DNA of 51,644 nucleotides, from positions 1 to 51,644 of the forward strand of contig JAHLMN010000011.1 of NCBI GenBank assembly GCA_018920345.1. Direction: 5' to 3'. Source of the stretch: Candidatus Aenigmatarchaeota archaeon. GTDB lineage: Archaea > Aenigmatarchaeota > Aenigmatarchaeia > CG10238-14. Below the pieces are notes generated by a model. That model was given only the letters and a program-made list of their open reading frames with translations. It did not search any database and was not told the DNA's origin. Made by a program: the position numbers and the translations under genes. Shown here piece after piece: positions 1-49,591 of this stretch (positions are counted from its first letter, which is position 1; every line of letters starts with the position of its first letter).

Positions 1-184
<184 letters not shown>

Positions 185-45110: not shown

Positions 45111-45205
45111 AAAACTTCACGCGAGACTTCACAAAAACTTCACGCAAGTTTTAAATTAATAAACATACTTAAATTAACTGTTTGTGAAGCGGGGTGTGAA
45201 GTTTT
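45111..45205. promoter_or_regulatory. Phased ACTTCAC repeat array with inverted copies, upstream of the AAA+-wHTH gene
   Basis: ACTTCAC at 45114, 45126, 45137; GTGAAG at 45184, 45196; AAAACTTCAC/GTGAAGTTTT form a perfect 10-bp inverted repeat. Confidence 0.75.
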
Positions 45206-46336: not shown

Positions 46337-46600
46337 GTGGCTGATACAAGAGTAAAGGCAAAATCTGTTATTGGAAAAACAATAATTAGTGAGGAAACAG
46401 GGAGAAGATTTGGGGTTGTAAGTAATGTTGATTTTGTTACAGAAAGCGGAGAGTTGCTTAACATAGTAGTTGCAGGTGCTACAAAGGCTTTGAAAGATTT
46501 GAATTTAAAAGAAGATGATAAAGGAAGACTATTAATACCTTTTAGTGCAGTAAAATCAATAGGAGATTTTGTTGTAGTAAGTGAAAACGAATTACTGTAA
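46337..46600 (+). CDS. PRC-barrel protein (CdpB-like)
   Basis: IGKTII.E.GRRFG.V, SGEL..IVV, IPFSAVKSIGDFVVV; GTG start after SD AGGTGA. Confidence 0.88.
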   Translation: MADTRVKAKSVIGKTIISEETGRRFGVVSNVDFVTESGELLNIVVAGATKALKDLNLKEDDKGRLLIPFSAVKSIGDFVVVSENELL

Positions 46601-47260
46601 ATTTTGTTTTCCCCAAAGTATTTTTTTCCCATATTTAATTCTATATACTAGTCCTTTTTTCTCCATCTCTATTAGTATTTGATTTGCTCTACTTCTTGAT
46701 ATACCTAATAGATCTCCTATTTCTTCACTACTAAACTTGTTTCCATTTAATTGCTTTAAAATTTCCTTTTCTCTCATGCTTTGCTCTAGACTATCAGCGG
46801 ATTTTCTTATTTTTTCCAAAATAGCCAACTGTTGATTGCTGTTGATTGCTGTTGACAACTGTTGATTGCTGTTGATTGCTGTTGACAACTGTTGATTGCT
46901 GATAAAAATCTTAAGTTCATCAATACTTTTTCTTATAGAATCGAGTTCTTTAAAGAATTCATCATTAGATTCTAACTCATCTTGAAACCTTTTTTCGGTT
47001 AAAACTTTATCAGGAACCCTTAAATCAAATTTTATGTCTAAACCAGTTATTTTTTCCTTTATTAAGGCCAAATCTGCTGCCATTTGTTCTATTTGTCCCA
47101 TCCTTCTTGCATATTGTAAATCTCTAATGTTATAACCACCATCAACTGTTGATTGCTGTTGATTGCTGTTGATTGCTGTTGACAACTGTTGATTGCTGTT
47201 GACAACTGTTGATGCTCTTTTAATCCCCAGAACTTTTTTCATAAATTCTTTAAAACTCAT
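46592..47260 (-). CDS. Coiled-coil protein with INSNQQLSTA repeats and C-terminal winged HTH
   Basis: SSEEIGDLLGISRSRANQILIEMEKKGLV.R...GK; two low-complexity repeat blocks. Confidence 0.8.
   Translation of the reverse strand: MSFKEFMKKVLGIKRASTVVNSNQQLSTAINSNQQQSTVDGGYNIRDLQYARRMGQIEQMAADLALIKEKITGLDIKFDLRVPDKVLTEKRFQDELESNDEFFKELDSIRKSIDELKIFISNQQLSTAINSNQQLSTAINSNQQLAILEKIRKSADSLEQSMREKEILKQLNGNKFSSEEIGDLLGISRSRANQILIEMEKKGLVYRIKYGKKILWGKQNLQ
46826..46901. repeat. 10-bp tandem array (GTTGATTGCT/GTTGACAACT), about 7.5 units, intragenic
   Basis: Perfect decamers at 46831-46900 with a 30-bp higher-order period. Confidence 0.95.
47143..47213. repeat. Second 10-bp tandem array of the same units, about 7 units, intragenic
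   Basis: CTGTTGA recurs every 10 bp from 47146 to 47212. Confidence 0.95.
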
Positions 47261-47294: not shown

Positions 47295-47333
47295 CTTCAC
47301 GACTTCACGTGAAACTTCACGTCCATTTCACGT
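47295..47333. promoter_or_regulatory. TTCACG repeat array with perfect TTCACGTGAA palindrome upstream of the wHTH gene
   Basis: TTCACG at 47296, 47304, 47316, 47327; the last two overlap the kae1 3' end. Confidence 0.75.
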
Positions 47334-48288
47334 CAACTTCATCAACTCTCCAATCTTTTAATATGAAAGATTCTTCCAATTTAGTTCTTACACCTGATTT
47401 GTACATTATCAAACCAGTCCAACCTATCATCACTCCATTATCTCCAGCATATTTCATAGGCACAGAGAAAACTTTAGCACCTCTATCTTTACACATGACT
47501 TCTAACATATTTTTTAACCTTTGATTTGCAGCAACACCACCAGTTACAAGAACTTCTTCTTTTTCTGTATGTGCTAAAGCTCTTTCTGTAGCTTCTATCA
47601 ACATTGAAAAGCAAGTTTCTTGAAAAGAATAAGCGATATCCTCTTTTTTAAACCCTTTTTTGTAAAGTTTTTGACATTCAGTAACTATACCTGAAAAAGA
47701 AAAATCCATGCCTTTAACTACATATGGTAGATCAATCCAATTTCCGTTTTCTGCTAATTTCTCTATTTTTGGACCGCCTGGCATTTCTAATCCTAGAGAT
47801 CTTGCTAAAACATCAAAGGCATTTCCTATAGGAATATCTAATGTCTCTCCAAAAATTCTATATCTATTTCCTGTTAAAGCAATTATTTGAGTATTGCCTC
47901 CAGAGCAATAAAGTATAACAGGATCTTTTGCACCTGTCATTAATTTTGCAATTTCTATATGAGCAATCGGATGATTAACCCCTACTAGAGGTAAATTATG
48001 CTTTAAAGATAGATATCTTGCTATAGTGGCGCCAAGAGATAAACAATTAGGTAATCCTGGACCTTGAGAAAAGGCTATTATATCGATTTTTGATGTCTCA
48101 AAAGCTTTCTTAATTAAACTAGCAGCGTTTTCTGCATGATATTCAAATACCTTTCTAGGAAGCATACCCTGACCTAATGGAGGTTGATAAAAAGACTTTT
48201 CATCAAATAAAACATTTCCTTTCTCATCAATAAGGCCTACACCAAAGGTATGAGCTGTTGATTCTATTCCTAAACAAACTCTAGTCAA
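47317..48288 (-). CDS. kae1: tRNA t6A threonylcarbamoyltransferase Kae1 (KEOPS)
   Basis: LGIESTAHT, FSQGPG, VNHPIAHIE, SGGNTQ, GETLDI, GGVAAN, DNGVMI; TTG start (48294 is an alternative). Confidence 0.96.
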   Translation of the reverse strand: MTRVCLGIESTAHTFGVGLIDEKGNVLFDEKSFYQPPLGQGMLPRKVFEYHAENAASLIKKAFETSKIDIIAFSQGPGLPNCLSLGATIARYLSLKHNLPLVGVNHPIAHIEIAKLMTGAKDPVILYCSGGNTQIIALTGNRYRIFGETLDIPIGNAFDVLARSLGLEMPGGPKIEKLAENGNWIDLPYVVKGMDFSFSGIVTECQKLYKKGFKKEDIAYSFQETCFSMLIEATERALAHTEKEEVLVTGGVAANQRLKNMLEVMCKDRGAKVFSVPMKYAGDNGVMIGWTGLIMYKSGVRTKLEESFILKDWRVDEVDVKWT

Positions 48289-48499
48289 ACTCAAACACCT
48301 TCATTATTTTTGCATTGCCCCCTCCTTGATTAATTAAATTTCTAAGATTTTTCAATATTTCCAGATTTATTTCATTATCTTCTAATTGCCAAACAGAATC
48401 CATAACTTTGGTCGCATTTAATTTTTGTAACTCCCTCCAAACTCTTACCAGTAAAGTATTCTTTGTTTTAGGGATATCATACATTATTATTAATGCCAT
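48281..48499 (-). CDS. Small Cas2-like ferredoxin-fold protein (PaaX-middle/ChrB-N-like)
   Basis: IIMYDIP....LVRVWRELQKLNA.KVMDSVW; ATG at 48499; overlaps the kae1 start. Confidence 0.7.
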   Translation of the reverse strand: MALIIMYDIPKTKNTLLVRVWRELQKLNATKVMDSVWQLEDNEINLEILKNLRNLINQGGGNAKIMKVFEFD

Positions 48500-48581
48500 G
48501 TAATACGTATTACAAAAACGAAAATAAAAGCTTTTTTGACAAAAATAAGAAAAATTTGAGCTTTTTGTAATACGTCTGACA
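48499..48581. promoter_or_regulatory. Pair of 16-bp palindromic operators
   Basis: TGTAATACGTATTACA (48499-48514, perfect palindrome) and TGTAATACGTCTGACA (48566-48581, 14/16 identical). Confidence 0.75.
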
Positions 48582-48860
48582 TCACTCACTAACTTTCTTC
48601 ATATATTTCAAGTATGTTAAAACACCTTTTAAATCGACATTTTTATTCTTTAATTTGACTAATTTTAGCTTTAAACCATATTCGTTTAAATTTTGAGTCA
48701 AAATAAACTGATTTAAGTATTTATCTAAAATTTCAGAGACAGTTTGATGATGAATACCAGTTCTTCTGCTTATTTCCCTTAAATGAAGCCAATCTTGAGC
48801 TTCTTTAAGCACAAAAAGAATTTTTCCGATTTTTTTTACTGTATCTTGACGCATACCCAT
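48582..48860 (-). CDS. Small winged-HTH DNA-binding protein
   Basis: LHLREISRRTGIHHQTVSEIL. Confidence 0.8.
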   Translation of the reverse strand: MGMRQDTVKKIGKILFVLKEAQDWLHLREISRRTGIHHQTVSEILDKYLNQFILTQNLNEYGLKLKLVKLKNKNVDLKGVLTYLKYMKKVSE

Positions 48861-48943
48861 AATCTCTCACGAACTCTCACTTGCCAGCTGGCGCCTTTTT
48901 ATCTCACTTTTCTAGACTATTATAGCATTTCTACTTTAAGATA

Positions 48944-49591
48944 TTATGCCAAACTTCTATCACAAACCCTTCTAAACCTACACTTTAAGCATTTTTGAGG
49001 ATTTGTTGTTGATTCTGGCAATCTAACATCTCTGATGAGATCATGTATTTCAATTATATCCTTTACAACCGTTTCTAAGAGATTTTTATCAAATTTTTGA
49101 CACCAAAAAACTTCTTTAGTATCTCTATTTCTTAAAACACTGAAAATATCTCTATCGGGCTTAAATTCTTCAGAAAAACTTAAGCTATATGCAGCCACTT
49201 GCTTGATAAGACCTTGATAAGCTACACTACCTGGCTTGTCATCTATTATTAAAATATTATCAGGAAATATTTGTACCTCATCTATTTTTCCATATATACC
49301 ATATTTGCTGGAAATAGTTTCCAGCTCTCTTATAAAAAAAGACTCGCCTGTTTCTTTAGATCTAATCAAGGCTTCTTCTATTGTCATTTCTTCTTCAGCT
49401 TGCTCTAGAAACTCTCTTTCTAACTCTTCATGAATCTGCTTACCAATTATCATTTCTGCTGTTTTCTCAACTTTTATTTTCTTTATCTTTTCCAAATATA
49501 ACTGGTATTCACAAAAACCTTTACTATGCAGCCAAGATATAGGAAAATGATTAATACCATTTATAACTATCAAACCATCTATTCCATTCAT
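48944..49591 (-). CDS. cas4: Cas4-like RecB-family nuclease (solo, Fe-S)
   Basis: FCEYQ, GKQIH, GKIDEV, IDDKP, QVAAY, KCLKCRFRRVC (1+3 Cys). Confidence 0.85.
   Translation of the reverse strand: MNGIDGLIVINGINHFPISWLHSKGFCEYQLYLEKIKKIKVEKTAEMIIGKQIHEELEREFLEQAEEEMTIEEALIRSKETGESFFIRELETISSKYGIYGKIDEVQIFPDNILIIDDKPGSVAYQGLIKQVAAYSLSFSEEFKPDRDIFSVLRNRDTKEVFWCQKFDKNLLETVVKDIIEIHDLIRDVRLPESTTNPQKCLKCRFRRVCDRSLA

Follow-up and report, generated by a model that had tools for sequence, protein, structure and literature searches.

Two arrays of a 10-nt unit lie within a single open reading frame of a Candidatus Aenigmatarchaeota archaeon and are translated in all three frames in turn, and the sequence of the unit is held almost unchanged between species, synonymous positions included. 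In pairwise comparisons of orthologues, four-fold degenerate sites differed in 1 of 243 cases within the arrays versus 309 of 497 (62%) in the flanks, the latter being near saturation. This freeze of synonymous sites across species is the most striking fact of the locus. The explanation that we prefer, and to which we would give about an even chance of being right, is a coding minisatellite. It would supply linkers rich in Q, N, S and T on either side of a coiled coil, with conversion keeping the units homogeneous and the reading in three frames constraining every base.

Organisation of the locus

The window, i.e. the whole stretch of 51,644 nt that was analysed (contig JAHLMN010000011.1 of assembly GCA_018920345.1, forward strand), belongs to a genome of 815,730 bp in 27 contigs that is 95.5% complete and has 29% GC. 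The sequencing runs that contain the stretch are labelled hot-spring metagenomes, and the closest protein relatives are labelled Candidatus Aenigmatarchaeota. The features of the repeat gene and of its surroundings are collected in Table 1. The start of the protein, MSFKEF.., is kept among orthologues, and the N-terminal amphipathic helix that it opens may serve membrane or partner targeting.

Table 1. Features of the repeat gene and its surroundings, in positions of the window
Feature	Position	Strand	Basis
Gene for a 222-aa protein: amphipathic helix, array N, coiled coil, array C, predicted winged helix-turn-helix (wHTH)	46592..47260	-	ORF list, Pfam, AF2
N-terminal amphipathic helix MSFKEFMKKVLGIKR	47216..47260	-	AF2 helix 3-10; kept by orthologues
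Array N, 7 units TCAACAG+NNN, encoding STVVNSNQQLSTAINSNQQQSTV	47143..47212	-	Gene nt 49-118, first unit in frame 0
Central helical/coiled-coil part, residues 45-119	46904..47128	-	AF2; family alignment
Array C, 7 full units with one degenerate unit ahead, encoding ISNQQLSTAINSNQQLSTAINSNQQL	46826..46905	-	
Predicted winged helix-turn-helix, about residues 160-218	46607..46783	-	Pfam, AF2, Foldseek
(C/T)GTGAAGT repeats at 11-12 bp spacing	47295..47341	-	TRF period 11, 3.5 copies
Second GTGAAG cluster, 3 on minus and 2 on plus strand	45114..45202	.	LigT-like/AAA ATPase divergent promoter region

The gene closes a convergent cluster of three, the other two encoding an AAA_22-type ATPase with a C-terminal wHTH and a PRC-barrel protein, and the cluster is retained in the genus and in G007, a genome of the sister genus. 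The kae1 and LigT-like genes that flank it give the locus a chromosomal context. The PRC-barrel, ATPase and kae1 neighbours are all kept in G007, while none of them was found within about 1.5 kb of the 13 more distant family members that were examined. The ATPase matched the Pfam model AAA_22 at 1.4e-13 (AAA_22/ExeA type), with a PEP-CTERM-associated ATPase model below its cut-off and no Pfam match to tubulin, actin or ParA. With its C-terminal wHTH it looked Orc1/Cdc6-like, and a replication origin was considered here; this was dropped in view of the AAA_22 match and with no Cdc6 among the matches listed. GC skew across the window displayed no clear switch at the locus.

Architecture of the arrays

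On the coding strand, the unit consists of the heptamer TCAACAG followed by a 3-nt spacer, mostly TTG or CAA, which yields the two main types TCAACAG+TTG and TCAACAG+CAA. The heptamer core is the same in 14 of 14 full units of this genome. Spacers run TTG, CAA, TTG, CAA, CAA, CAA, TTG in array N and TTG, CAA, CAA, TTG, CAA, CAA, TTG in the seven full units of array C, which occupy positions 46826-46895 (gene nt 366-435, first full unit in frame 2) behind the degenerate unit at 46896-46905. Analysed with TRF on the plus strand, array C (46826-46901) was described by a period of 10 with 7.3 copies and 80% matches or by a period of 30 with 2.5 copies and 100% matches, and array N (47143-47213) by a period of 10 with 6.8 copies and 82% matches or by a period of 20 with 3.5 copies and 88% matches.

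The first-pass annotation of this DNA had spoken of two perfect 10-bp arrays within a wHTH gene, in blocks of about seven units roughly 240 bp apart, and derived the peptide repeat from one DNA unit translated in rotating frames. Both 10-bp arrays are real, with seven full units each and a gap of 241 bp between them, and the rotation of frames stands as well; their perfection does not, since array C is perfect only at period 30 and neither array is at period 10.

As 10 cannot be divided by 3, each unit is read in a different frame from the one before it, in the succession 0, 1, 2, and a set of three spells ten residues, S-T-[AV]-[IV]-N-S-N-Q-Q-[LQ], a Q/N/S/T-rich peptide period of the general form S-T-x-[IV]-N-[SN]-x-Q-Q-x. 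Several of the codons used are rare in the genome, namely ATC (4% of Ile), GTC (7% of Val), AGC (11% of Ser), CAG (14% of Gln) and AAC (22% of Asn), and they persist despite the low GC content. Of 14 matches to the pattern CTGTTGAYWR in the window, 13 lie within the arrays and one elsewhere; shuffled sequences averaged 0.86 matches, the highest count being 4, and none of the 100 shuffles reached 14. No other 10-bp array with a TRF score of at least 60 was detected across the whole genome.

Predicted fold and protein family

Pfam matches of the wHTH type are weak and lie at residues 163-212, with Sigma70_r4 at 24.7 bits against a cut-off of 24.1, MarR_2 below its cut-off (25.9 against 27) and TrmB and HTH_Crp_2 likewise below theirs. 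A match to EAP30/Vps36 (E 1.9e-4), also below cut-off, was taken as a generic winged-helix match. The AF2 model, built from 23 homologues and reaching a mean pLDDT of 71.6, contains helices at residues 3-10, 45-81, 89-127 and 131-171, followed by a confident wHTH at 178-218 (helices 178-185 and 189-201, strands 205-210 and 213-218), with block-mean pLDDT of 86-90 across residues 171-220. Foldseek returned only winged-helix domains, of ArsR/SmtB-type and Z-alpha, at E about 1e-3 and with a target TM of up to 0.86. The C-terminal domain is hence predicted to be a winged helix, with a bundle of three helices and then a beta-hairpin wing in a MarR/TrmB/ArsR-like fold, and the weak Pfam match, the AF2 model and the Foldseek result all support the wHTH assignment made earlier. 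The arrays appear different in the model: residues 15-38, encoded by array N, are unstructured with a pLDDT below 50, and the region of array C, residues 121-140, forms a low-confidence helical stretch with block means of 56 and 53; both regions are set among helices modelled with confidence and the confident wHTH.

Profile searches place the protein in a wider, unnamed family of archaeal proteins of 170-250 residues that share the layout and have no repeats, i.e. a coiled coil with ..R-x-P-x-K-V-L-T-E..F..E.., then ..P-L-I-A-S-x-Q-Q-L-T-I-V-E.. and then the wHTH. This coiled-coil wHTH family is present in 18 of 61 related genomes searched, while its close members were found only in the genus itself (g1) and in G007 in an order-wide search of 118 genomes and a phylum-wide search of 371. 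The last copy of array C aligns with the motif ..I-x-S-x-QQL-x-I-x-E that distant members carry just before the wHTH, and in these repeat-less members the motif, e.g. ..PLIASRQQLTIVE.., is spelled by non-periodic DNA. The repeat therefore looks like the expansion of a pre-existing piece of protein. A full-text search of one literature library returned no paper on the family; as an uncharacterised family present in this number of related genomes, it deserves a name and an assay.

Conservation among orthologues

The gene is carried by four further species of the genus, by one of the sister genus (G007) and by three metagenome contigs. All seven full-length orthologues with DNA keep an intact open reading frame through both arrays and 7+7 full units, 98 units in all. 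Array N begins at gene nt 49 in frame 0 in each of the seven, and array C at nt 363 or 366 in frame 2. As far as the peptide shows, array lengths are also unchanged in the remaining full-length proteins of at least 70% identity. Among the 98 units, core positions 1, 3, 4, 5 and 6 are invariant and the only variants are G>A at position 7 (18 units) and C>T at position 2 (7 units). Spacers are TTG, CAA, TAA, AAA, TTA or ATG in an order that differs by species; in P0015/P0016 (about 45% identity), whose arrays are interrupted, the E, K and Y residues of the peptide may reflect AAA and TTA spacers. Beyond the genus, in G007 (50% identity), the 10-bp array at the N site is decayed and richer in AT, and at the C site a single QQLTAI is spelled in other codons.

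In three sister pairs, four-fold sites differ at 0 of 37 positions in the arrays versus 47 of 79 in the flanks (p 2e-11), and between G000 and mg34, which keep 13 of 14 units in the same order, at 0 of 14 in the arrays, with 19 of 27 changed in the flanks. Where the residue is identical, so is the codon in 704 of 746 pairwise comparisons within the arrays, versus 1458 of 2602 in the rest of the gene; for the three sister pairs these counts are 104 of 109 and 251 of 401 in the flanks. The absence of synonymous drift that had been remarked on inside this genome thus extends across species. Likewise, the 10-bp periodicity from which a role at the level of DNA had been argued is conserved together with the heptamer and the unit number in all seven orthologues, and within the genus we did not find the opposite picture of a peptide kept in divergent codons with no periodicity.

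Concerted evolution and selection on the peptide

Unit types particular to one lineage tend to turn up in both arrays. The TAA-spacer unit is found in G002 only and in both arrays of it, the TTAACAG unit in G004 and G001 only and in both arrays of G004, and P0002 (94% identical) carries N>C at matching places in its two arrays. Lineage-specific types shared by both arrays of a genome indicate that these evolve in concert, and the perfect higher-order periods of 20 or 30 bp seen in several arrays mark these as young. Judging from these patterns, the arrays are being rewritten by slippage or conversion, including exchange between the two blocks.

The choice of unit depends in turn on the frame in which it is read. 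Units with a TTG spacer, which would encode Ser-Cys in frame 1, occur there in 1 of 28 cases versus 40 of 70 in frames 0 and 2 (Fisher p 2.5e-7), and this avoidance of the Cys-encoding frame implies that the peptide is also under selection. The seven TTAACAG units are found in frames 0 and 1 and are absent from frame 2, where a stop would result, while TAA spacers are confined to frame 1. The change G>A at position 7 occurs in all three frames, where it gives A>T, S>N or a synonymous codon; it is AT-directed and, whatever the frame, conservative or silent. Both core variants fit tolerance in three frames combined with AT mutation pressure.

A proposed coding minisatellite read in three frames

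We propose a model in which the repeat would have grown, in the lineage of one Aenigmatarchaeota genus, from the older family motif before the winged helix, with a related copy of this motif coming to sit in the N-terminal linker. Slippage and gene conversion would then keep both arrays alike, while selection on the protein would hold their length. Array N may act as a flexible low-complexity spacer between the N-terminal amphipathic helix and the coiled coil, and array C as a similar spacer between the coiled coil and the wHTH. If units are copied among positions that are read in different frames, every base of the unit would come under purifying selection as first, second and third codon position, and only changes harmless in all three frames could spread.

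That the repeats simply encode disordered linkers had been put forward before as one of several possibilities. It is the one that fits best, given the low pLDDT of array N and the frame-dependence of the unit types, but taken alone it leaves the frozen synonymous sites unexplained. By standard theory, truly neutral sites diverge no more slowly under concerted evolution. The observed freeze is stronger than homogenisation alone predicts, so that the model proposed here needs out-of-register conversion to be frequent, presumably frequent enough to freeze synonymous sites across frames. With the order of units so well kept between G000 and mg34, the conversions required would have to be invisible, i.e. 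between units of the same type. Further observations sit uneasily with a linker-encoding minisatellite: codons that are rare in the genome persist in the arrays despite its low GC content, a constant unit number is unusual for such a repeat, and a unit of nearly one helical turn, two blocks and a DNA-binding product resemble an array of binding sites.

Tandem amino-acid repeats in prokaryotic genes, as far as they are treated in the relevant parts of PMC6749651, offer a close precedent. They too are in-frame, consist of near-identical DNA units and have a low-complexity product, with unit variants that are common within a genome and different between species. The coding satellites described in these parts are, however, characterised by unit lengths in multiples of three, while the unit here has 10 nt and one DNA unit is read in three frames (PMC6749651). 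The present case further differs from coding minisatellites in that copy number is constant across species rather than variable, and in that two arrays evolve in concert within one gene. Our literature search, covering the full texts of the same single library, brought up no account of a conserved coding repeat whose 10-nt unit is translated in all three frames. If the freeze is due to nothing but three-frame reading and unit exchange, the locus represents an unusually clean natural case of a non-triplet coding repeat in which every base is constrained at the level of the protein, and it would be a useful test of models for concerted evolution and for selection on overlapping frames.

A possible site array within the coding sequence

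A serious, if rather unlikely, alternative is that the arrays are helically phased DNA or mRNA cis elements embedded in the coding sequence, with the peptide largely a harmless passenger. Cooperative binding, whether of the gene's own wHTH product or of some other cluster protein, would serve to autoregulate the gene through roadblock or looping, or would give the arrays a centromere-like role. Somewhat more doubtful is the specific form in which a dimer of the coiled-coil wHTH protein binds two blocks of seven sites cooperatively and so loops or coats its own gene for autoregulation or acts as a chromosomal tether; the same bases would then encode both the protein and, across three frames, a site array, with the site shaping the peptide and not the other way round.

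Embedded sites would explain the freeze, the phase and the fixed number directly. The nucleotide-level constraint goes well beyond the needs of the peptide. In the core, five of the seven positions are invariant even as the type of the 3-nt spacer changes; across spacers the encoded residues alternate between unlike amino acids (N/C/R, L/Q/M, A/V/T), which would be expected if it were the DNA unit that is kept; and both the 10-bp phase and the unit count are conserved. At the end of array N, TTG units create the near-palindrome TCAACAGTTGA, and the gene product is itself a predicted wHTH. This unusually strong constraint at the level of nucleotides keeps a dual use of the sequence alive as an explanation.

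Several observations argue in the other direction. The spacers also lack synonymous variety, frame-2 Leu being spelled TTG in 22 units and TTA in a single one even though the genome uses TTA more often, and a spacer that is not contacted would vary. The type of unit depends on the frame, and the core shows only those variants that the peptide tolerates. Orthologues vary by 3 bp in how far apart the arrays lie, which means that the helical register between the blocks is not fixed. The wider family does without arrays altogether, and the GTGAAG repeat in the promoter offers a more conventional site. An RNA structure was considered and rejected: folding of the mRNA from the promoter to array C is not unusual, with a z of -1.33 and 9 of 100 shuffles folding at least as well.

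The distribution of the motif points the same way. Among 23 family genomes, phased TYAACAR pairs within the gene occur only in the five genus genomes, at 5-13 per genome, and outside the gene these five contain none except for one background hit each in G002 and G003. Isolated phased hits elsewhere are about as many as in a reversed-pattern control. As no phased pair rises above background beyond the gene, there is no sign of a regulon. A look for the decamer elsewhere in the genome, suggested in the first-pass annotation, showed heptamer and decamer at background-like counts outside the gene, with two small clusters in ordinary coding sequence. In a database of genome contigs, three TCAACAG at 10-bp spacing were found at 63 loci; one is the G002 orthologue, and the others belong to unrelated bacteria, where most are simple repeats of one decanucleotide whose spacer is uniform.

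Centromeres made of split iterons to which a small DNA-binding protein attaches are a known architecture, with ParR-parC as one example. Type III partition offers another, in which, following the portion of PMC6009700 that covers TubR-tubC, short direct repeats are arranged, as here, in two blocks with a phase of nearly one helical turn and a small winged-helix-type protein is encoded beside them. In that system tubC lies upstream of tubR and overlaps the promoter, as do the centromeres and operators of this kind described in that portion, while the arrays here are intragenic and start 48 and 365 nt past the start codon (PMC6009700). Furthermore, there is no adjacent TubZ, ParM or ParA motor in our case, the neighbouring ATPase being of AAA_22/ExeA type, and the context is chromosomal, with kae1 and LigT. 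Should the arrays indeed be bound, the locus would offer a rare instance, in a DPANN archaeon, of phased sites lying inside the coding sequence of a DNA-binding protein and co-evolving with it. To our knowledge, almost nothing is known about gene regulation and chromosome handling in DPANN archaea.

Phase variation as an improbable alternative

With 10 nt, a number that is not a multiple of 3, repeated inside an open reading frame, the locus could in principle be a contingency locus, as the first-pass annotation had also considered. Slipped-strand gain or loss of 10 bp would switch between a full-length product, a wHTH-less one after a shift in array C and an off state after a shift in array N, recombination between the arrays would delete the coiled coil, and second-order selection for switching would keep the repeat pure. 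We regard this as very improbable. All seven full-length orthologues agree in unit number, as do, going by the peptide, the other full-length proteins of at least 70% identity, so that the proposal finds no support in the counts.

A few records do deviate. P0014 (138 aa), whose flanks are identical to those of P0040/L035, is shorter by three units in array N and by two in array C, losses that shift the frame and remove the wHTH; P0013 and P0041 differ by three units; in G001 both arrays are fused in frame (6 units, 116 aa); and P0018 (98 aa) begins inside an array. P0014 is the one frameshifted record, its near-identical counterpart P0040 from a different assembly being intact, and all other records are in frame. 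However, the three deviations in P0013, P0014 and G001 are all contractions, P0014/P0040 and P0013/P0041 are pairs of near-identical contigs from different assemblies (37,080/36,526 bp in one pair and 51,778/51,484 bp in the other), and the fused arrays of G001 sit on a contig whose stated coverage is 3.7x. Collapse of the repeat by the assembler explains all three equally well. Depths in run X2 fit the assembled unit numbers. No alternative junction or loose end was reported within the arrays, although contigs drop rare variants.

A familiar example of such switching is opa of Neisseria, in which, according to the part of PMC3745409 concerned with it, a CTCTT pentamer in the leader-peptide region changes in number at about 1e-3 per cell per generation and alleles occur in and out of frame. 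The likeness consists in a unit within the open reading frame that is not a multiple of 3, passes through rotating frames and shifts the frame when gained or lost. In contrast to opa (PMC3745409), the number is fixed here in the orthologues, with a few exceptions that may stem from collapse during assembly, the unit has 10 nt instead of 5, and no surface protein or host interaction is involved.

Integrity of the assembled arrays

An artefact of assembly had been named as one outcome that would overturn the earlier interpretation. No single Logan contig spans the arrays, the Logan unitigs (k = 31) of X1, X2, X5 and X9 end inside both of them, and other assemblies differ in copy number; the unitigs break there because they are built from short words. 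Nonetheless, the array edges and inner junctions are matched without mismatch by unitigs of 4 runs from 3 studies. Unitig depths relative to the flank in run X2 are 2.0, 1.0, 3.3 and 2.3, where the assembled copy number predicts 2, 1, 3 and 2, and the ratio in run X1 is 3.4 versus 2.8 expected, in a sample that also contains relatives. The reading frame is unbroken across both arrays, and the same architecture recurs in independent assemblies of at least 7 populations. From the junctions, the X2 depths and this recurrence we take both the arrays and their unit numbers as real; an artefact is unlikely, and that misassembly produced the arrays or their copy numbers is hardly credible.

Promoter-located GTGAAG repeats

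The GTGAAG repeats upstream of the gene lie just ahead of its TATA-like AAATAAATAT and overlap the last codons of kae1. With the second cluster, both outer promoter regions of the gene cluster carry such repeats at 11-12 bp spacing, and we consider them a candidate operator for one of the two predicted wHTH proteins, more conventional in kind than the arrays. Six more loci of the genus show the layout, G001 with a smaller number of copies; it was not seen in G007. The genome contains eight phased GTGAAG pairs, seven of which are in the window and five at the two promoter clusters.

Results and discussion

The convergent cluster encoding the ATPase, the PRC-barrel protein and the array-bearing wHTH protein has GTGAAG repeats in each of its two outer promoter regions. 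Seven of the eight phased GTGAAG pairs in the genome lie within the window, five of the eight at these two promoter regions, and the same promoter layout recurs at six additional loci from this genus and was not seen in the sister-genus species G007. The repeats are a likely candidate operator for one of the two wHTH proteins of the cluster. At the adjoining kae1 gene, the terminal codons of Kae1 (..DEVDVKWT*) are written by two copies of an 11-bp GACGTGAAxTG repeat, which extends beyond the stop codon. After the 10-bp arrays, the 3' end of kae1 is the second example in this locus of a non-triplet repeat entering coding sequence. Three genes upstream of kae1 keep their order in the genus, and no CRISPR array was seen within the window.

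Repeats and genes of the locus, of the source genome and of species G001
Feature	Position	Strand	Remark
GTGAAG repeats	window 45114-45202 and 47295-47341		11-12 bp spacing; outer cluster promoters
GACGTGAAxTG repeat	window 47317-47345	minus	two copies; 3' end of kae1
Three genes, conserved order	window 48281-49591	minus	upstream of kae1
First of these			Cas4/PD-(D/E)XK-like, 215 aa
Second			wHTH, 92 aa
Third			102 aa; weak ChrB_N and Cas2 matches
T-rich run, then 21-A run	window 72-151		T-rich run ~59 nt; window start
wHTH gene of G001	L013:1462-1809		116 aa; loci L013 / L033
51-bp repeat	C26:3160-3859		13.7 copies; TRF
72-bp period	C3:93366-93541		2.4 copies; TRF

In G001, another species of the same genus, the wHTH protein is short, its N-terminal helix being followed by a single array of six units, which leads directly into the wHTH part. 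The gene looks as though in-frame recombination between the two arrays had deleted the coiled coil; collapse during assembly would account for this form equally well, since the contig title gives a coverage of 3.7x.

The search of genome contigs for three TCAACAG motifs at 10-bp spacing matched 63 loci, about 20 of which are Acidobacteriota contigs sharing conserved flanks, ..TGTAGATGATTTTGTAGCTGC.. on the 5' side and ..TTGAAAC.. on the 3' side (L042, L046, L051, L055, L062, L069, L070, L082, L085, L092 and similar). As several such loci occur per genome, they constitute a dispersed repeat element, which is without relation to the archaeal wHTH gene. The matches in Citrobacter, Enterobacter and Klebsiella (L045, L056, L060) consist of three to six copies of CATTCAACAG decamers, passing directly into CACGTAACGA-type decamers, and this tract looks like a variable decanucleotide repeat common to enterobacteria.

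Within the source genome itself, the highest Tandem Repeats Finder (TRF) score belongs to the 51-bp repeat on contig C26.
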